Shown here: positions 1-63,081 of the stretch, in pieces
Layout of the letters: every line of letters begins with the position of its first letter
Numbering within the stretch: the stretch's first letter is position 1
Assembly: GCA_944392805.1 (NCBI GenBank)
Contig: CALXXZ010000008.1
Coordinates: 6,173 to 70,172 of the forward strand
Direction: 5' to 3'
DNA length: 64,000 nt
Source: an uncultured Clostridia bacterium
GTDB taxonomy: Bacteria > Bacillota > Clostridia > TANB77 > CAG-508
Translations under genes and position numbers: made by a program
Notes under the pieces: generated by a model
The model's database searches: none
Told to the model about the DNA's origin: nothing
Seen by the model: only the letters and a program-made list of their open reading frames with translations

Positions 1-1
1 A

Positions 2-79
2 GAAAACGTTGCTAAAGCTGAAGCTGAAGAATTAAAAGCTAAACTTGAAGAAGTTGGAGCAGTTGTAGAATTACAATAA
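2..79 (+). CDS. rplL: ribosomal protein bL12 (L7/L12), C-terminal end; 5' partial at window edge
   Basis: Frame 2 reads ENVAKAEAEELKAKLEEVGAVVELQ*, the typical bL12 C-terminus. A strong terminator follows. Confidence 0.75.
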   Translation, partial: ENVAKAEAEELKAKLEEVGAVVELQ

Positions 80-102
80 TTTATAAATAATATAAAGAAA
101 TG

Positions 103-131
103 GAGTACATTTTTATGTACTCTATTTTTTT
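103..131 (+). terminator. intrinsic terminator after rplL
   Basis: GAGTACAT-TTTT-ATGTACTC stem-loop followed by a T-run. Confidence 0.7.
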
Positions 132-142
132 GCACAAAAAGT

Positions 143-169
143 TATCCTTAATTGTTTTAATTAAGGATA
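143..169. repeat. perfect palindrome A (11-bp arms, loop GTTTT)
   Basis: TATCCTTAATT-GTTTT-AATTAAGGATA. It is the exact reverse complement of the copy at 284-310. Confidence 0.85.
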
Positions 170-5681: not shown

Positions 5682-6974
5682 ATGAAAATATTGATGCTAA
5701 CATGGGAATATCCACCAAGAGTAGTAGGTGGAATAGCGAGAGTAGTATATGACCTATCACACAGACTAATAAAAGATGGTCATGAAGTAACTGTAGTAAC
5801 ATACAGAGAAGGAGATGCTCCATATTATGAGGATGATAAAGGAGTAAAAGTACACAGAGTAGACAATTACATGATAAATCCAAACAATTTTATAGACTGG
5901 ATAATGCAAATGAACTTCAATATGATAGCAAAAGCAAATCAAATAATATCAGAAGAAGGCAAATTCGATGTAATACATGCACATGACTGGTTAGTAGCGT
6001 ATGCTGCCAAAACAATAAAGAATTCATACAATATCCCAATAGTAGCAACAATACATGCCACAGAATCAGGAAGAAACAGTGGAATACATGATGAAACCCA
6101 AAGATATATAAATGATACAGAATGGATGCTTACATATGAAGCAACAGAAGTAATAGTAAACAGCAATTACATGAAAGGCGAAACACAAAGACTATTTGGA
6201 TTACCATTTGAAAAAATAAATGTAGTAGCAAATGGAGTAAACTTAAATAAATTTAGTGGAGTAGAAAGAGACTATCAATTTAGAAGAAGATATGCAATGG
6301 ATAATGAAAAAATAATATTATTCATGGGAAGACTAGTATATGAAAAAGGTGTACAAAACCTAATAGCAGCAATGCCAAAAATCCTAGCAGGATATCATGA
6401 TGCAAAACTTGTAATAGCAGGAAAAGGTGGAATGCTAGATGAATTAAGAGCACAAGCTGATGCACTAGGAATAAGTAATAAAGTATATTTTGCAGGATAC
6501 ATGAATGGAAAAGATGTAGAAAAAATGTACAAAGCAGCAGACATATCAGTATTTCCAAGCACATATGAACCATTCGGAATAGTAGCATTAGAAGGAATGC
6601 TAGCAGAAAGACCAATAGTAGTATCAGATGCTGGAGGACTAGGAGAAATAGTAGACCATAGAGAAACAGGAATGAAGAGTTATTGTGGAAATCCAAATTC
6701 AATTGCAGACTCAATATTAGAATTACTATTTAATCCAGAACTATGTGCAAATATAGTAAAAAAAGCAAAAGCAAAAGTAAAAAATGAATATAATTGGGCA
6801 AAAATAGCACAAGACACACACTTCACATATCAAAAAGCAATATGCGAAACAATGGCAGAAAGACAAAGAAAACAAAATGAACAAGAAAAAGCAAAAAAGA
6901 CAAAAAAAGCAAAAGGAACAGAAAAAGAAATTACAAACTTATTATCTTTCAAAAAACGTCAAGCATATGCATAA
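5682..6974 (+). CDS. glycosyltransferase family 4 (GT-B, group 1)
   Basis: N-terminal MKILMLTWEYPPRVVGGIARVV and C-terminal E..FGIVALEGM motifs. Lys-rich tail. Confidence 0.75.
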   Translation: MKILMLTWEYPPRVVGGIARVVYDLSHRLIKDGHEVTVVTYREGDAPYYEDDKGVKVHRVDNYMINPNNFIDWIMQMNFNMIAKANQIISEEGKFDVIHAHDWLVAYAAKTIKNSYNIPIVATIHATESGRNSGIHDETQRYINDTEWMLTYEATEVIVNSNYMKGETQRLFGLPFEKINVVANGVNLNKFSGVERDYQFRRRYAMDNEKIILFMGRLVYEKGVQNLIAAMPKILAGYHDAKLVIAGKGGMLDELRAQADALGISNKVYFAGYMNGKDVEKMYKAADISVFPSTYEPFGIVALEGMLAERPIVVSDAGGLGEIVDHRETGMKSYCGNPNSIADSILELLFNPELCANIVKKAKAKVKNEYNWAKIAQDTHFTYQKAICETMAERQRKQNEQEKAKKTKKAKGTEKEITNLLSFKKRQAYA

Positions 6975-17263: not shown

Positions 17264-17295
17264 AAAAGTTGATATATTGATTATATCAACTTTTT
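17264..17295 (+). terminator. intrinsic terminator (AAAAGTTGATATA hairpin family)
   Basis: AAAAGTTGATATA-ttgat-TATATCAACTTTT plus T. The stem is near-identical to the hairpin at 63032. Confidence 0.75.
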
Positions 17296-24693: not shown

Positions 24694-24903
24694 ATAATTT
24701 CCTCCTTCGCATTTAATATATATTAATAATATATCATATTATGTCCAATTTTACAAGAAAATTAATAATTTTTATTCAAATGAATAGAATTAAATAAAAA
24801 ATAAAAAAAATTTTTAAGAATTTTTTTAGTACAAGTTGCATATAATATATTATACCAAGTATTACCAAGGCTTACGGAAATTGATACTACAAAAACAAAA
24901 AAT

Positions 24904-24932
24904 TTGACAAAAAAATAAAAAAAGGTTATAAT
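24904..24932 (+). promoter_or_regulatory. promoter of the 3D-domain gene
   Basis: TTGACA-N17-TATAAT. Confidence 0.55.
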
Positions 24933-24957
24933 AAAAATGTCGTTAAAAGGAGGTTAT

Positions 24958-25902
24958 ATGATTTTTATGAATAAAAAAGATAGTGCATCTATCTCTATTA
25001 TGAAAATCATTGGTGTTAGTTTAATATTTATATTAATTTTCGGAGTAAGCGTAATGGCTACGGAAATAGATATTAGAAGTGTTGAAATAACGATGTCAAA
25101 TGGTTACAAAATGACAGTTGTAACAAGTAAAACAAATGTATCAGAAATTTTAGAAGACAACAATATAGTTATAGAAGAAGACGAAAGAGTAAGTCCGGAT
25201 TTAGAATCAGAAATAGGAGAAAACAATAAAATAGTAATCTCAAATAAATCCGAACAAGAGGTACAAATAGCCAAAATATCAGAAAGTGGAATAGAAACAA
25301 CATTAGATGAAATATTAAAAAGTTACACACCAATAATTGAAAAAATAGTAGTAGAACAAGAAGCTATACCATATGAAACAATTACAAAAGACGCATCAGA
25401 AGGAGTATCAGACACAAAAAATAAAGTAATACAACAAGGAGAAGACGGAATAAGAGAAGTAACATATAAAATAAAATATCAAAACGACGAAGAAATAGAA
25501 AGAACAAAACTTTCAGAGAGAATAGTAAAAGAACCAGTAGATAAAATTGTTCAAGTACAAAAAAATGTAACAACATCAAGAGGATCAATATCAAGAGGAA
25601 GTACTAATACATCAGGAACAACAAAAATATTTAAAATAACAGCATATTGCCCATGTTCTAAATGTTGTGGAAAATATGCATCAGGTTATACATCATCAGG
25701 AACAAAAGCGACAGCAGGTCGTACAGTAGCAGCTTCATCTCAATTTGCATTTGGAACAAAATTAATAATAAATGGTAAAGAATATACAGTTGAAGATAGA
25801 GGAGGAGCTATAACTGGAAATAAAATAGATATTTTTATGAATACACATGCTGAAGCATTAGCATGGGGAGTAAAATACTTACCAGTACAAGTAGTTGAAT
25901 AA
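24958..25902 (+). CDS. DUF348/G5/3D-domain cell-wall protein (YabE/Rpf-like)
   Basis: TM segment, G5-like repeat and a C-terminal 3D domain (ITAYCPCSKCCGKY...VEDRGGAI.GNKIDIF). Start at the ATG at 24958 after AAAGGAGG. The track ATG at 24937 abuts the -10 box. Confidence 0.8.
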   Translation: MIFMNKKDSASISIMKIIGVSLIFILIFGVSVMATEIDIRSVEITMSNGYKMTVVTSKTNVSEILEDNNIVIEEDERVSPDLESEIGENNKIVISNKSEQEVQIAKISESGIETTLDEILKSYTPIIEKIVVEQEAIPYETITKDASEGVSDTKNKVIQQGEDGIREVTYKIKYQNDEEIERTKLSERIVKEPVDKIVQVQKNVTTSRGSISRGSTNTSGTTKIFKITAYCPCSKCCGKYASGYTSSGTKATAGRTVAASSQFAFGTKLIINGKEYTVEDRGGAITGNKIDIFMNTHAEALAWGVKYLPVQVVE

Positions 25903-25909
25903 GAAAAAA

Positions 25910-25946
25910 GTGAATTGAAGAAATATTTTCAATTCACTTTTTTTTT
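25910..25946 (+). terminator. intrinsic terminator
   Basis: GTGAATTGAA-loop-TTCAATTCAC followed by T9. Confidence 0.8.
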
Positions 25947-25948
25947 AC

Positions 25949-26155
25949 GCAAAGCTCAAAAGGGGACGGTCCTGTTTGGTGCATTATCTATATTAAATAT
26001 AACTCAAAAGTTTATATATTACTATTCCATGGCAAAACCATATTCTGGGTCTTCGTCGGGGGTCTTTGCCTTATTTCATAGTAATATATAAACTTTTTGT
26101 TATAATTATACATTTAAAAATGCACCAAACAGGACCGTCCCCTTTTGAGCTTTGC
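25949..26155. repeat. nested palindromic element E1: 37-bp perfect outer arms, 20-bp inner stem, conserved GC-rich core
   Basis: Outer arms are 25949-25985 and 26119-26155. Inner stem is 26006-26025 / 26078-26097. Stem GGCAAA/TTTGCC encloses the core GGTCTTCGTCGGGGGTCTT (26048-26066). Confidence 0.85.
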
Positions 26156-26260
26156 TTTGGAGTGAAAAAATTATAAAAATCTTAAAAAAATGATGAAAAA
26201 TATTAAGAAACATGATATAATAAAATAGTCGAGAAATATGAGAAAAAAACAGGAGGAAAT

Positions 26261-28066
26261 ATGAGTCAAGAAAAAATAAGAAACTTTAGTATAATAGCAC
26301 ATATAGACCATGGAAAATCCACACTAGCAGATAGATTAATAGAAAAAACAGGTGTATTAACACAAAGAGAAATGGAAGAACAAGTATTAGACAACATGGA
26401 AATAGAAAAAGAAAGAGGAATAACAATAAAATCACAAGCAGTAAGAATGAAATATAAAGCTAAAGATGGACAAGAATACATATTTAATTTAATAGACACA
26501 CCAGGACATGTAGACTTTAACTATGAAGTATCAAGAAGTTTAGCAGCATGTGATGGTGCAATATTAGTAGTAGATGCAAGCCAAGGAGTAGAAGCACAAA
26601 CACTTGCAAATGTATATTTAGCAATAGAAAATGACTTAGAAATATTACCTGTAATAAACAAAATAGATTTACCAAATGCAAGACCAGAAGAAGTAAAAAA
26701 AGAAATAGAAGATATAATAGGAATACCTGCAATGGATGCACCATGCATATCAGCAAAATCAGGATTAAATGTAGAAGAAGTGCTAGAAAAAATAGTAACA
26801 GAATTACCACCTCCAAAAGGAGATGAAAATGCAAAAACAAAATGTTTAATATTTGATTCATATTATGACAATTATAAAGGTGCAGTTGCATATGTAAGAG
26901 TAGTAGACGGAAAAGTAAAAGTAGGAGACGAAATAAAACTAATGGCAACAGGAAAAACATTTACTGTAGTAGAAGTAGGATATTTCGAACCTGGAACATA
27001 TATGCCAACAGAAGAAATAAAAGCAGGAGAAGTAGGATATATTGCAGCAAGTATAAAAAGTTTAACAGACATACAAGTAGGAGATACAATAACATTAAAA
27101 GATAATCCTGCAGATGAACCATTACCAGGATATAAAAAAGTAACACCAATGGTATATTGTGGATTATATCCAATAGATGGTAGTGAATATGAAAATCTAA
27201 AAGTGGCATTAGAAAAACTAAAACTAAATGATGCAGCATTAGAATATGAACCAGAAACATCAGCAGCATTAGGATTTGGATTTAGATGTGGATTTTTAGG
27301 ATTATTACATTTAGAAATTATAGAAGAAAGACTAGATAGAGAATTTGATTTAGGATTAATAACAACAGCACCATCAGTAATATATAAAGTACATAAAACA
27401 ACAGGAGAAACATTAGACATATATAATCCAGCAGACTTACCACCAACAACAGAAATTGCATATATGGAAGAACCAATAGTAACTGCAAATATAATGACAC
27501 CAAAAGAATTTGTAGGAAATATAATGGATATATGTCAAAATCGTAGAGGAACATTTATAGACATGAAATATCTTGATGAAAACAGAGTAACATTAATATA
27601 TGATATGCCATTAAATGAAATAATATATGACTTTTTTGACAGTTTAAAATCAAGAACAAAAGGATATGCATCATTTGATTATGAATTTAAAGAATATAGA
27701 GAATCAAAACTTGTAAAATTAGATATTCATGTAAATGGACAACCAGTAGATGCATTATCATTTATAGTATTTAAAGACAATGCATATGCAAGAGGAAAGA
27801 AAATGGTAGAAAAATTAAAAACAGTTATACCAAGACAATTATTCCAAATACCATTACAAGCAGTAATTGGTGGAACAATAATAGCAAGAGAAACAATATC
27901 AGCAATGAGAAAAGATGTATTAGCAAAATGTTATGGTGGAGATATAACAAGAAAGAAAAAATTATTAGAAAAGCAGAAAAAAGGTAAAAAAAGAATGAGA
28001 CAGATTGGTAATGTAGAAATGCCACAAGAAGCATTTTTATCAGTACTAAAGCTAGATGACGAGTAA
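26261..28066 (+). CDS. lepA: elongation factor 4
   Basis: [28 protein letters not shown] and a LepA C-terminal domain. Confidence 0.93.
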
Positions 28067-28067
28067 A

Positions 28068-28132
28068 GGGAAATTTGGGGACAGTCCCATAATTACCCAA
28101 AAGGAAATTTAGGGACTGTCCCCAAATTTCCC
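28068..28132. repeat. 21-bp-arm perfect hairpin with GGGGACAGTCCC core
   Basis: GGGAAATTTGGGGACAGTCCC, a 23-nt loop, then GGGACTGTCCCCAAATTTCCC. It starts 2 nt after the lepA stop. No T-run follows. Confidence 0.8.
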
Positions 28133-28160
28133 AAATCTTCAAAATAAGAAAGGTGAGAAA

Positions 28161-28910
28161 ATGAAAGAACAAAAATTTGATGACCAAGTAGAAGGAAGAA
28201 ATTCAGTATTAGAATTATTAGAAAGTGGAAAAGACATAAACAAGATATATGTAACAAGAGGAGAAAAACATGGGTCAATAAATAAAATTCTAGCAATAGC
28301 AAAGCAAAGAAAAATAATAATAGTAGAAAAAGATAAAAAGCAGATGGACGAGATGGCACAAGAAGAAAATTATCAAGGAGTAATAGCAATAGTACCACCA
28401 TTTGAATATGTAGAAATAGAAGATATTTTAAACACTGCAAAAGAAAGACAAGAAGATCCATTTGTATTAATACTAGATGGAATAGAAGACCCACATAATT
28501 TAGGTTCTATAATTAGAACAGCAGAAACAGCAGGAGTACATGGAATAATAATCCCAAAAAGGAGAGCAGCATCAGTAAATAGTACAGTAAATAAAACATC
28601 AGCTGGAGCAGTAGAACATATGAATATTGCAAGAGTAACGAACATTACAGATGCAATCGAAAAGTTAAAACAAGCAGGACTTTGGATATGTGGAACAGAC
28701 ATAAATACAAATAAATATTATTATAATCAAGATTTAACAGGACCGCTAGGAATAGTAATTGGAAATGAAGGAAAAGGAATAGGAGAAAAGGTAAGAAAAA
28801 ATTGTGACTTTTTAGTAAAAATTCCTATGAAGGGAAAAGTAACATCATTAAATGCAGCAGTATCAACAGGAATAGTTATATATGAAGCAGTAAAGCAAAG
28901 AATAAAATAA
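28161..28910 (+). CDS. rlmB: 23S rRNA (guanosine-2'-O)-methyltransferase, TrmH/SpoU family group 3
   Basis: SpoU_sub_bind N-terminus plus SpoU motifs (DPHNLGSIIRTA, GNEGKGI, SLNAAVS). Confidence 0.85.
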   Translation: MKEQKFDDQVEGRNSVLELLESGKDINKIYVTRGEKHGSINKILAIAKQRKIIIVEKDKKQMDEMAQEENYQGVIAIVPPFEYVEIEDILNTAKERQEDPFVLILDGIEDPHNLGSIIRTAETAGVHGIIIPKRRAASVNSTVNKTSAGAVEHMNIARVTNITDAIEKLKQAGLWICGTDINTNKYYYNQDLTGPLGIVIGNEGKGIGEKVRKNCDFLVKIPMKGKVTSLNAAVSTGIVIYEAVKQRIK

Positions 28911-28935
28911 TATAATTTTTTGTGAGGTAAAAAAT

Positions 28936-30630
28936 ATGAGAAATAAGAAAATATTAATAATTGTAATAGTTTTAATAGTAATATTATGCATGATAGGTGG
29001 AATTTTTACATATTTGTTTTTAGCAACAGACTTATTTAGAAGTGACAAAGAAATGTTTTTTGAATATTTTTCTCAAAACATACAAATGGTTAACAATATG
29101 AAAAGTGCAGGGACATATAAGCAAATACGAAATGAAGAAACATATGAATCAAATACAGAAATAAAGGTAAGTAACTCAAGAGGTGGAGAAATATCTAGTC
29201 CTTTAAATGACTTATCAATGACAATTGATGTCAAAAAAGATAATGCAAATCAATATTCATATACAGATGCACAAGTTTTATTTAAAGGTGAACAATATTT
29301 AGAAGCTGAATTGATTAAAAATCAAGATATTTCTGGTATAAGATTTTCTGATGTAGTAAAACAATTTGTAACAGTAAGAGATGGAGATGAATCAGGAACA
29401 ATTCCTACAAGTGTTGAAGATATAGTTTCAGAAGATGAAATAACAACTCTAAAAGACAAATATTTAAACATTATAAAACAAGAATTAGAAAATGCTACAT
29501 ATAATAAGACTAAAAATGTAATGATAACTTATAACAATAACACAATTGAGACAGATGCATATACAGTTACATTATCACAAGATCAAGTAGGAAATATAAT
29601 CCTAACAACATTAGAAAATTTAAAAACAGATGAAATAATTTTGCAAAAAGCTGAAATGTTCGGAAAAGATAATATAGTAGAAGAGATAGATAAATTAATA
29701 GAAGATTTATCAGACTATGAAAATATCTATGAAATGAAGATAACAGTATATGAGCAAAATGATGTGGTTGTAAGAACAGTTGTAGAATATGCAGGTAATA
29801 TAATAACAATGGAAAATTCAATAGAAAATGGATTACCAAAAATAAAATTACAAAGAACATGTCCTAATTTTGATAAAGTTGTACAACAAAACTTAGAAAT
29901 TACAAAAACAGCTACAGACAGTGAAGAAACTTATAATATCAATGTAGAATTGATAGATGGAGAAGACACTAAAACAATAAACTTTACAAACCAATTAACT
30001 TTAAATGGGCAAAATGTTACAATAAATACAGAATTAAAATATACACAAGGAATAGAAACAACTGCAATAACAGTCATAAATACAATAAATTTAGTTGACA
30101 ATTTAGAAAATAAAGTTGAATTAGATGAAAGCAATAATGTTATTTTAACTGATTTAGATGAAACATCAAGAGAAAGTGTAATAAATCTATTAAAAGAAAA
30201 TGTACCTCAAGTAATTGACCATAGAATAAGTTTATTAAGTGAATTATTAGGATTTAAACAACCTGAAGATGGTGAGCAACCTACAGAACCAGGAGAAATG
30301 TCACAAGTAGAAATAAATAGATTTAATGCAAAATTTGAATTTTATACAGGTAAATCAGTTAGTGCCGAAAATGTAAAGGCATTGTTAGATGTAGTAAAAA
30401 ACAATTTAGGAAATGTTGAAATTACTCCAATTGGAGAAGTAACAGAAGAAACGAATGAAGAAGATATAAAAGAAAATATCAAATTAATTATAGAAAAAGA
30501 TAAAGAAAATCAAGAATTAATAAATCAAGTTTTGGAAAAAATAGATGATAAAACAAAATATAATGTAGAAATTGCATATAAACAAGAAAATGGATTAATA
30601 GATTATATAACTATAACAGAAGCGGAGTAA
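28936..30630 (+). CDS. hypothetical membrane-anchored extracytoplasmic protein
   Basis: N-terminal TM segment, then 530 aa with no recognisable motif and no LPXTG signal. Sits upstream of the sortase. Confidence 0.55.
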   Translation: MRNKKILIIVIVLIVILCMIGGIFTYLFLATDLFRSDKEMFFEYFSQNIQMVNNMKSAGTYKQIRNEETYESNTEIKVSNSRGGEISSPLNDLSMTIDVKKDNANQYSYTDAQVLFKGEQYLEAELIKNQDISGIRFSDVVKQFVTVRDGDESGTIPTSVEDIVSEDEITTLKDKYLNIIKQELENATYNKTKNVMITYNNNTIETDAYTVTLSQDQVGNIILTTLENLKTDEIILQKAEMFGKDNIVEEIDKLIEDLSDYENIYEMKITVYEQNDVVVRTVVEYAGNIITMENSIENGLPKIKLQRTCPNFDKVVQQNLEITKTATDSEETYNINVELIDGEDTKTINFTNQLTLNGQNVTINTELKYTQGIETTAITVINTINLVDNLENKVELDESNNVILTDLDETSRESVINLLKENVPQVIDHRISLLSELLGFKQPEDGEQPTEPGEMSQVEINRFNAKFEFYTGKSVSAENVKALLDVVKNNLGNVEITPIGEVTEETNEEDIKENIKLIIEKDKENQELINQVLEKIDDKTKYNVEIAYKQENGLIDYITITEAE

Positions 30631-30646
30631 TTAGGAAGGAGGTCAT

Positions 30647-31375
30647 ATGAACCAGATATTAGTGACAGAAAAAATTTATGTTACACCAGAATTGAAACGT
30701 AAGAAAAAGATGTATAAAATATTATTTATACTTTCCATATTTACTATTATATCTTTATTTTCAGTATATATATATGCTGAATATGACAGAAATGAAAAAG
30801 AAAGTATATCTCAAGATATATTATCACTTATAGAACAAGATGATGATACACTAGTAAGTTCATATGATAATGCATTAATAGTTTCTATAACACAAGAAGC
30901 GGCTGCTAATGCAGAACAAGTTTCTGAAGAATTACCAAAAACAGGAATAGTAACTTCAAAATATACTGCTTCAGATGGAAAAACTTATGATATAATAGGA
31001 AGAATAAATATACCTAAAATTGGTGTAGATTATCCAATATTTTCAGAATATACAGCAGAATTATTAAAAGTTTCTGTTTGTAGATTCCATGGTGGAAATC
31101 CAAATGAAGTAGGAAATTTATGTATAGTTGGACATAATTATAGAAATGAAAAATTTTTTAGTAAAGTGCTAACACTTCAAGTTGGAGATATTGTAGAAAT
31201 ACAAGATTTAAGCAAAAAAACAGTACAATATGAAGTTTATGATATACATGAAGTAGATCCAAATAACAGAGATGATACAACTCAAAAAACAAATGGAAAA
31301 AAAGAAGTTACATTAGTAACTTGTACTAATGACTCAAAAAGAAGAGTTATTGTAAAATGTAGAGAAAAAATATAA
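30647..31375 (+). CDS. sortase family transpeptidase
   Basis: TM anchor, catalytic His context (IVGHNYRNEKFF) and TLVTCT cysteine motif. Confidence 0.8.
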   Translation: MNQILVTEKIYVTPELKRKKKMYKILFILSIFTIISLFSVYIYAEYDRNEKESISQDILSLIEQDDDTLVSSYDNALIVSITQEAAANAEQVSEELPKTGIVTSKYTASDGKTYDIIGRINIPKIGVDYPIFSEYTAELLKVSVCRFHGGNPNEVGNLCIVGHNYRNEKFFSKVLTLQVGDIVEIQDLSKKTVQYEVYDIHEVDPNNRDDTTQKTNGKKEVTLVTCTNDSKRRVIVKCREKI

Positions 31376-31380
31376 CCCCA

Positions 31381-31430
31381 AAATCCCCTAAAAACATAAT
31401 AAATAGAGAGATTATGAAAGGGGATTTTTT
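31381..31430 (+). terminator. putative terminator (long loop)
   Basis: AAATCCCCT ...29 nt... AGGGGATTT plus a T-run. Confidence 0.45.
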
Positions 31431-31464
31431 GTATTAAAAATATAATAATCAAAAGGAGAATTTT

Positions 31465-32679
31465 ATGAAATTAGTTTCTATACCTAAAGATAAATATAAT
31501 GATTATAGACTTAATCTTATTTTTAATGCATACAAATGGGATCCTCAATTTTTAGATAATAATACTGTAGCAAAATATGCATTAGTAATTACAGAACAAG
31601 AACATAAAGAATTAGAAAAATTAACAGAAAAACTAGATAAAGAAACAAGACAAGCTGAAGAAATATTAAATAAAAATTTAGAATTTACAAAGCCTTTAGC
31701 ATTACCTAAAAAAATATATAAAGAACTAAAAAATATGAAAAATTATCAACCAGAAAAACATATTCGTCTTATGAGATATGATTTTCATCCAACTATAGAT
31801 AAAAATTGGGTAGTAAGTGAAGTAAATAGTGACGTTCCAGGTGGATTTGCAGAAGCTTCAATAATGCCACAAATTGCTATTGATGTTTTAAAAGAAGACA
31901 AATATTGGTATAAAAATTTTGGAGATATTCTAACAAATGCAATTGTTAAAAAAGTGAAACCCAAAGGAACTATTATGCTTGTTCATTGCACTTCATATAG
32001 TGATGATAGGCAAGTTATGCAATTTCTAGGTGATAAATTAAAAAATATGGGATTTAACATTATATATGGTGCTGCTGACCATCTACGATTTAAAAACAAT
32101 GAAGCAATCAGCATTCTTGATGGAAATGAAGGAAAAGTTGATGGAATATTTAGATTTACACCATTAGAATGGTTAATTGACATTAAACCAAAGCATTGGC
32201 AAGGATATTTTGATACAATAACACCATCTTGTAATCATCCTATAGCAATATTTGCACAGACGAAAAGATTTCCACTTGTATGGGATTTTCTTGAAAAGCA
32301 AGGTGTTGACTTATCAACATGGAGAGAGCTACTACCAGAGACATTAGAAGTTAAAGATGCCAAAAATAAAGAAAGTTATATATATAAACCAGCATGTGGA
32401 CGAGTTGGGGAAAAGATATCTATAAAAGAAGCGTGTAAAGATGATGAATATGAAAAAATTATTGCAGATGTAAAAAAACATCCTAAAAAATATTTAGCGC
32501 AAAAAAGATTTAATAGCAAACCAGTAATAAGTGAAGATGGTGAAAGTTTTCATGTGTGTTTGGGGTCATATAGTGTTGATGGAAAACATAGTGGTTATTA
32601 TGCTAGAATAAGTAAATTACCGCGTATAGATTCAAATGCAGCAGATATCCCAGTTTTAATAGAAAGGGGCTGTGAATAA
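31465..32679 (+). CDS. glutathionylspermidine synthase-family ATP-grasp protein
   Basis: RYDFHPT...VSEVNSDVPGGFAEAS pattern typical of the GSP_synth family, at a length of about 400 aa. Confidence 0.65.
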   Translation: MKLVSIPKDKYNDYRLNLIFNAYKWDPQFLDNNTVAKYALVITEQEHKELEKLTEKLDKETRQAEEILNKNLEFTKPLALPKKIYKELKNMKNYQPEKHIRLMRYDFHPTIDKNWVVSEVNSDVPGGFAEASIMPQIAIDVLKEDKYWYKNFGDILTNAIVKKVKPKGTIMLVHCTSYSDDRQVMQFLGDKLKNMGFNIIYGAADHLRFKNNEAISILDGNEGKVDGIFRFTPLEWLIDIKPKHWQGYFDTITPSCNHPIAIFAQTKRFPLVWDFLEKQGVDLSTWRELLPETLEVKDAKNKESYIYKPACGRVGEKISIKEACKDDEYEKIIADVKKHPKKYLAQKRFNSKPVISEDGESFHVCLGSYSVDGKHSGYYARISKLPRIDSNAADIPVLIERGCE

Positions 32680-58407: not shown

Positions 58408-58424
58408 AATGTTAATTTAAATAT

Positions 58425-58514
58425 AAAAAGAATATATAACTATTTCATAGTCAAAACATAGCTATGGTCTTCGTCGGGGGTCTTGACTTTACTCAATAGT
58501 TATATATTCTTTTT
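58425..58514. repeat. nested hairpin element E2 (20-bp stem, conserved GC-rich core); doubles as a terminator
   Basis: AAAAAGAATATATAACTATT ... AATAGTTATATATTCTTTTT plus a T-run. Inner stem AGTCAA/TTGACT encloses GGTCTTCGTCGGGGGTCTT (58466-58484). Confidence 0.85.
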
Positions 58515-58597
58515 TTTTATAAATGAATAAAACACTTGACTTTTTTTTTATAATATGAAAAAATACGAAAAGAAAAACAAGAAAGGAAGTATATTAA

Positions 58598-63031: not shown

Positions 63032-63081
63032 AAAAAGTTGATATATTACTAAAATTCTTAATAGTTATATATCAACTTTTT
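63032..63081 (+). terminator. long AT-rich hairpin between ptsH and ptsI (AAAAGTTGATATATTACTA family)
   Basis: About 20-bp stem with one mismatch, a 10-nt loop and a T-run. The stem is homologous to the E1 inner stem and to the hairpin at 17264. Confidence 0.6.

Follow-up and report, generated by a model that had tools for sequence, protein, structure and literature searches.

The 207-nt palindromic element found upstream of lepA in an uncultured Clostridia bacterium appears, with moderate confidence, to be a composite of two lineage-specific palindromic intergenic repeat families, one nested inside the other, which are mobile and terminator- or insulator-like. Both families are multicopy and non-coding, and both are gained and lost between species. 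Since the copies are non-coding and duplicative, are often gained or lost, and have unrelated neighbours, the element is a repeat of the REP/BIME, MITE and BOX kind and not a conserved cis-regulatory RNA; its role is probably that of a terminator or insulator, as predicted from the sequence. The whole stretch of DNA that was analysed, 64,000 nucleotides in length, is referred to as the window. The results add an undescribed pair of repeat families and a structure model, R1, for the poorly known low-GC gut Clostridia, and provide a natural example of terminator hairpins that are built, nested, flipped and replaced in one lineage, up to palindromes of about 480 nt.

The outer layer is an inverted pair of a REP-like, terminator-like unit, GGGGACNGTCC, and the inner layer a module of about 92 nt. 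This module has an AT-rich stem, P1, with A-run and T-run flanks, then P2, a stem of 6 bp, and an apical loop that is asymmetric and conserved. The site would be a harmless place, an un- or weakly transcribed gap between the terminator of a 3D-domain gene and the lepA promoter. Both families may spread as non-autonomous DNA, through a factor encoded elsewhere or through recombination, and would preferentially end up at or in terminator hairpins, where they could come to act as terminators or insulators in both directions. The perfection of the arms, the paired changes in the stems, the inversion of the cores and the extra arms peculiar to individual loci could all stem from template switching between inverted repeats during replication.

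Nested architecture of the element and its second copy

The nested geometry reported in the preliminary description proved exact. Outer arms of 37 nt (100% complementary) enclose the AT-rich 20-nt arms of P1 (26006-26025 / 26078-26097; 100% complementary), which in turn enclose P2, formed by 6-bp pairing of GGCAAA (26031-36) with TTTGCC (26065-70), and a G-rich 19-nt core holding a GGTCTT direct repeat (GGTCTT-N7-GGTCTT). Between the perfect layers, spacer arms (25994-26008 / 26094-26108) are 80% complementary. Two occurrences each of the 37-mer arm and the 19-mer core were counted in the window, against 0 expected from 100 shuffles. Folding of the 207 nt gives a single long hairpin with an energy of -109.1 kcal/mol (z = -18); the element is flanked by TTTAC on the 5' side and TTTGG on the 3' side. 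The positions of all layers are collected in Table 1.

Table 1. Coordinates of the repeat layers, modules and related hairpins in the window
Feature	Position	Strand	Description
P1-type hairpin	17264-17294	.	Stem same as that of the 63033-63080 hairpin; 5-nt loop
Ordinary terminator-like hairpin and T9 run	25903-25946	+	After the 3D-domain gene; adjoins the 5' side of the element
Left outer arm	25949-25985	+	37 nt; one GGGGACGGTCC unit of the REP-like family; perfect inverted repeat of 26119-26155
Left AT-rich spacer layer	25986-26005	.	Imperfect palindrome with 26098-26118; about 70% identical to the L002 ortholog (by eye)
Inner module copy 1	26006-26097	+	P1, internal loop, P2, 28-nt apical loop
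Core	26048-26066	+	GGTCTTCGTCGGGGGTCTT; last two bases overlap the 3' strand of P2
Right AT-rich spacer layer	26098-26118	.	Arm complementarity and L002 alignment
Right outer arm	26119-26155	-	Reverse complement of the left arm; degenerate in orthologous L002
Inverted pair of GGGAAATTTGGGGACNGTCCC units	28069-28131	.	Directly after the lepA stop codon; outer-arm family; terminator-like; orthologous pair in L002
Inner module copy 2	58424-58515	+	Short form, without outer arms; about 18 nt past the stop codon of a 175-aa gene
P1-type hairpin without core	63033-63080	.	Between two + strand ORFs; stem equals P1 of the L038 and L068 modules

The first copy of the inner module scores 114.9 bits with the covariance model R1. 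Its P1 is followed by TTTTTG, and the 3D gene upstream already has a terminator of its own, directly adjoining the element. Downstream lies a promoter-like TG-TATAAT, with its -10 hexamer at 26216-26221, in a block conserved with two orthologous stretches, L002 and L080. Promoter-like matches in the element or beside it number 62, fewer than the 80 of shuffled sequence, and were uninformative. The 58-aa TTG ORF that overlaps the element (25915-26091) is mechanical, and no conserved ORF was found; a coding potential of the module was rejected, as its internal ATG is ATA in many copies, a change that covaries with P2, and the frame is not conserved. No direct target-site duplication was found, either at the element or in comparisons of filled and empty sites, and the earlier statement that the element shows no target-site duplication, ORF or transposase stands.

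The recurrence of the inner module at a second locus was likewise borne out: in copy 2 the core is identical while P1 and P2 are changed on both strands, and the copy scores 104.2 bits with R1. It has an A-run, a 20-bp stem and then T9, and is the sole hairpin with a T-run after its upstream gene; copy 2 is thus probably the terminator of that 175-aa gene, as predicted from sequence. R1 also matches ordinary terminators of the window, via P1 alone, and together with the terminator-like anatomy of copy 2 this makes the family look like putative mobile terminator hairpins. AT-rich stems with large loops are not scorable by the terminator consensus scan.

Two coreless hairpins of the window have one stem in common, AAAAGTTGATATA...TATATCAACTTTT, matching P1 of some filled modules exactly; one closes on a loop of 5 nt and the other, at 63033-63080, on 22 nt, and neither holds the core. 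Coreless P1-type hairpins were also found in L016, L053 and L061, and only in genomes that carry the core as well. The two hairpins of the window are either targets of the core or internally deleted modules.

Two repeat families in low-GC Clostridia

A scan for the 19-mer core, with one genome per species, returned 68 loci. Five of these are in GC-rich genomes, where the flanks are unrelated and chance alone would give about as many; the remaining 63, from six MAGs of uncultured, AT-rich (25-29% GC) Clostridia, hold 67 exact-core copies, distributed as 34 (BRZ_EF bin101), 23 (Hadza MAG), 4, 4, 1 and 1, to which the window adds 2, these being lower bounds because copies were ascertained by the exact 19-mer, which also overstates core conservation. 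The core, which the preliminary description had at only two loci, is therefore not unique to them, with dozens of copies in related genomes. An nhmmer profile search of the core loci gave 74 modules, five of which have a diverged core and keep P1 and P2; the apical loops of these are able to form a CUGG/CCAG or GGGG/CCCC hairpin. Among extra copies found only by proximity to ascertained ones, about half have a diverged core.

All 74 modules lie outside called ORFs (slight overlaps with ORF ends excepted), mostly just past the 3' ends of genes. Short copies begin 4-20 nt past stop codons and, outside the Hadza MAG, most copies are found downstream of a same-strand gene, often less than 100 nt from its stop codon. 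Between co-directional genes the module is on the genes' strand in 32 cases and antisense in 15; 12 modules lie between convergent and 4 between divergent genes. The core occupies the G-rich (largely coding) strand in 29 copies versus 6 in one MAG and in 9 versus 13 in another. The neighbours of the 74 copies are unrelated genes, among which no recurrent protein family, transposase-like ORF, invertase or recombinase was seen.

Tandem arrangements also occur, as pairs of modules and as one triple (L068, 4053-4346) with a 108-nt period, the first module of which is cut short where the preceding gene has its stop codon. The Hadza MAG contains at least 19 rod-like imperfect palindromes of about 400-480 nt with the module at the tip (e.g. 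L022 5850-6400, L019, L047, L061). Their layers are conserved and the outer arms are locus-specific yet complementary; asymmetric internal loops (AGGAATG / AGAGGCG) are conserved, and the ends lie near TTACTAG...CTAGTAA. The L022 palindrome folds at -196.6 kcal/mol. An assembly artefact was rejected, the same architecture being present inside long contigs of six independent MAGs.

The outer-arm unit, GGGGACGGTCC, is repeated at many further sites, singly, in tandem or as inverted pairs, and is present also in relatives without the inner module. In 0.9 Mb sampled, 81 units of the GGGGACGGTYC type were counted, many of them as inverted pairs; the window has two such pairs (25962/26132 and 28077/28113), the second of which, a pair of GGGGACNGTCC units, looks like a putative lepA terminator. 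Clade-wide, the repeat reads GGGAAATTTGGGGAC(N)GTCCC or GGGGACGGTTCTCTTTTTTCC, and its inverted pairs are apparent terminators; sites were noted in the window (28069-28131), L002 (3490-3600), L018 (about 6500-6550), L013 (1587-1625) and L080 (about 5949). Single units, AAAAAGGACCGTCCCCAAATTA, were also seen directly 5' of ribosome-binding sites, in front of genes unrelated to one another. Many modules of the BRZ MAG have one to three REP-like units on either side, and the AT-rich spacers in between are unrelated. The sequences next to the units are AAAA/TTTGG or AAATTT, and a GTAG-like 5' tetranucleotide beside the palindrome was absent from the flanks examined.

Rfam at gathering thresholds returned only tRNAs across the whole window, and permissive scans of both window copies and a Hadza giant element gave only generic miRNA-precursor models far below threshold (e.g. 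71 versus 211 bits), so that the module matches no known Rfam family; the window contains no rRNA. The core had no match in viral contigs, plasmids or phages, and no paper in the collection searched contained its sequence. A tblastn search with an approximate IS200 TnpA query gave no match at E < 1 in about 0.9 Mb of fragments, a result to be read with the divergence of RAYTs in mind. No parent IS with matching termini was seen near the 74 copies (about 0.9 Mb of fragments) or in plasmids or phages.

MITEs such as Correia/NEMIS, RUP and ERIC, together with the pneumococcal BOX, are non-coding sequences of 100-200 bp with terminal inverted repeats that form long hairpins and are present in many copies; they have long and short forms, internally deleted or modular, and affect termination and mRNA processing. 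The element resembles a classical MITE in its small size and perfect 37-bp terminal arms, but lacks the expected target-site duplication, and differs from MITEs and BOX in the nesting of three or four layers (to about 400-480 nt in the Hadza MAG) and in an apical core that flips. Of the three candidates put forward in the preliminary description, a MITE-like element came closest: the family is multicopy, intergenic, palindromic, non-coding, and gained and lost, though neither a target-site duplication nor, in the sampled DNA, a matching IS was found. REP, BIME and REPIN sequences are short intergenic palindromic units that form hairpins as inverted pairs and mosaics with linkers, often after genes; they can act as terminators, and their stems stay complementary while diverging (PMC3333891, PMC3116915, PMC1525189). 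The outer-arm family shares with them a highly repeated intergenic palindromic unit and its inverted doublets, but has no GTAG-type 5' tetranucleotide, and no RAYT gene was found in the 0.9 Mb or so of fragments sampled. REP hosts are Proteobacteria whereas the element is hosted by a low-GC Clostridia lineage, and the part that corresponds to a linker is here a structured repeat of 92 nt whose asymmetric core is conserved.

Turnover and inversion at orthologous sites

The stretch L002 is orthologous to window 24795-31647 (89.6% identity) and has the element in the corresponding position. Compared with the window, the 52-nt segment enclosed by its P1 arms is inverted, P1 and P2 differ by paired changes, and the right outer arm is degenerate; by eye, the module at the lepA site differs by about 10% and the spacer by about 30%. 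In a syntenic metagenome contig, L080 (3D gene 82% and lepA 88% identical), the site holds only the terminator and then the lepA promoter, in 145 nt versus 339 nt in the window. The core was found upstream of lepA in none of 48 lepA loci from relatives.

With L080, at least seven filled/empty orthologous pairs were found across MAGs, and in related species most orthologous sites are empty. Three orthologous sites are filled in both members, and in two of them (the lepA site; L049 versus L037) the cores have opposite orientations; L061 has a module whose orientation is reversed with respect to the outer layers around it. Two filled modules of L051 correspond to an empty P1-type hairpin in L053. 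None of the comparisons gave a clean filled/empty junction, and the apices of empty hairpins differ from the product of a precise excision. An apparent empty site at window 1-160 versus L057 was rejected, as the regions are not syntenic. As for variation among strains, identical LepA and dUTPase proteins were found again in one sample only, and the DNA of the lepA locus is identical there.

At one gene junction, three terminators were observed in three species: a GGGAC/GTCCC hairpin in L015 (1813-1940), a P1-type AT hairpin in L016 (2391-2640), and an ordinary hairpin plus a giant palindrome in L061 (698-1320). The turnover of terminators in this clade is fast.

Paired stem changes and the competing explanations

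In a structure alignment, A2, of 57 distinct copies, 98.6% of P1 cells are paired and 9 of 20 pairs are changed on both sides; for P2 the values are 99.1% and 5 of 6. Over all proposed stems (P1, P2 and CUG/CGG), 96.8% of cells pair and 14 of 29 pairs are changed on both sides, while pairing falls to 39-48% when the 3' partners are slid within the same structure. The CUG/CGG mini-stem itself has no comparative support. The short CCA..TGG stem of the preliminary description is present in the lepA copy but pairs in 53.8% of cells across the 57 copies and shows no covariation. P1 has a conserved WACTAT, outside which its sequence varies by locus and is always complementary.

The changes are almost purely Watson-Crick. 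P1 and P2 together show 169 double-change cells versus 4 single-side cells of the G·U type, and P1 has 1237 Watson-Crick base pairs versus 3 G·T. Six Hadza copies have an A·C mismatch of P1 in common, and the inheritance of such a mismatch indicates that copies propagate as double-stranded units. In the Hadza arms, G·U-type mismatches (159) mildly exceed those of the A·C type (113), among copies that are not independent; in P1 and P2, non-Watson-Crick pairs are too few for this asymmetry to serve as a strand test. Template switching is described as making arms alike, inverting spacers and lengthening inverted repeats, and mutation by itself can produce covariation when inverted repeats lie close together (PMC8604942, PMC13100816). 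Double changes with almost no G·U intermediates fit DNA-level arm homogenisation by template switching as well as they fit structural selection, and since templated mutation can yield paired changes, the covariation is not proof of a selected RNA fold. The same caution applies to RNA discovery from closely spaced inverted repeats in general. The products of template switching at quasipalindromes (arm homogenisation, spacer inversion, inverted-repeat extension) are the changes seen here between copies and orthologs (PMC8604942, PMC13100816, PMC7202029); being a local mutational process, however, template switching does not explain dozens of dispersed copies.

These observations bear differently on the explanations that compete with a composite of two mobile, terminator-like repeat families, which itself has to accommodate an asymmetric core and junctions far better conserved than a passive terminator needs, the strand bias of 29 to 6 in one MAG, which points to a strand-specific constraint, and the lack of a target-site duplication, a matching IS or a recurrent transposase-like ORF near the copies. 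The structured ncRNA of the preliminary description was the weakest of its three candidates, given the flipped cores at orthologous loci and the almost purely Watson-Crick stems. A functional RNA, in which the P1-P2 hairpin of a 3' UTR shows its G-rich loop to a trans factor (protein, ribosome or RNase) or yields a small RNA, is quite unlikely. It would explain the 14 of 29 pairs changed on both sides and 96.8% pairing against 39-48% when slid, the conservation of the asymmetric loop and junctions, the retention of P1 and P2 and of a possible loop hairpin (CUGG/CCAG or GGGG/CCCC) in diverged-core copies, the frequent position of non-Hadza copies within 100 nt of a same-strand stop codon, and the Hadza giants with their conserved asymmetric loops and excess of G·U-type mismatches. 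Yet it has no Rfam family to match, and it has to cope with cores flipped relative to genes in two of three shared sites, 15 copies antisense between co-directional genes, nearly absent G·U intermediates, unrelated neighbours, rarely conserved positions, and a first copy placed between a terminator and the lepA promoter. The short copies, 4-20 nt past stop codons, leave no room for a promoter of their own, and close inverted repeats can covary through mutation with no selection on a fold. A DNA-level site, either bound by a nucleoid or regulatory protein or acting as a programmed switch invertible between inverted repeats, is highly improbable. The GGTCTT-N7-GGTCTT repeat of the core, the orientation polymorphism between orthologs and the REP-like units directly before ribosome-binding sites of unrelated genes are in its favour, but the 52 nt that separate the P1 arms seem too few for a recombinase to invert, no recurrent invertase or recombinase was seen near the copies, and promoter-like matches are no commoner than in shuffles. 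Set against an inverton, an invertible promoter switch, both orientations occur between species, and no recurrent recombinase and no convincing promoter were seen.

Insertion into hairpin loops, also raised in the preliminary description, is suggested by the occurrence of every layer alone and by the L053/L051 pair, while internal deletion explains the empty hairpins equally well. In its explicit form, the centre of about 52-66 nt (junctions, P2 and core) would be a mobile unit homing to the apices of existing hairpins, by means of an HUH/Y1-like enzyme encoded elsewhere or of orientation-blind short-homology recombination via the inverted arms; this is rather unlikely, and if true would be an unusual route for small DNA to spread. 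All enclosing layers are also found without the centre, the empty P1-type stem AAAAGTTGATATA has the very sequence of P1 in the filled modules of L038 and L068, P1 outside WACTAT is locus-specific and complementary, modules lie between one to three REP-like units per side with unrelated spacers, the same site holds both orientations, the strand bias reaches 29 to 6 in one MAG, and a precedent exists in IS elements that target REP palindromes (PMC1525189). But the missing clean junction and apices unlike a precise excision product, the confinement of P1-type hairpins to core-bearing genomes, as expected if they are module-derived, and the lack of a Y1 transposase in the sampled DNA (approximate query, about 0.9 Mb) argue against it. 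A bolder version, in which the inner centre is a transposase-less or Y1-dependent element copying itself into terminator-hairpin loops in either orientation, as a mobile terminator cassette, is also quite improbable; if true, the same 19-nt G-rich loop would be delivered to the 3' ends of dozens of unrelated transcripts, and many genes could fall under one trans-acting RNA- or ssDNA-binding factor.

Read on the minus strand, the core (26048-26066; AAGACCCC...GACGAAGACCC) may resemble the A2058 region of 23S rRNA, GACGGAAAGACCCC.
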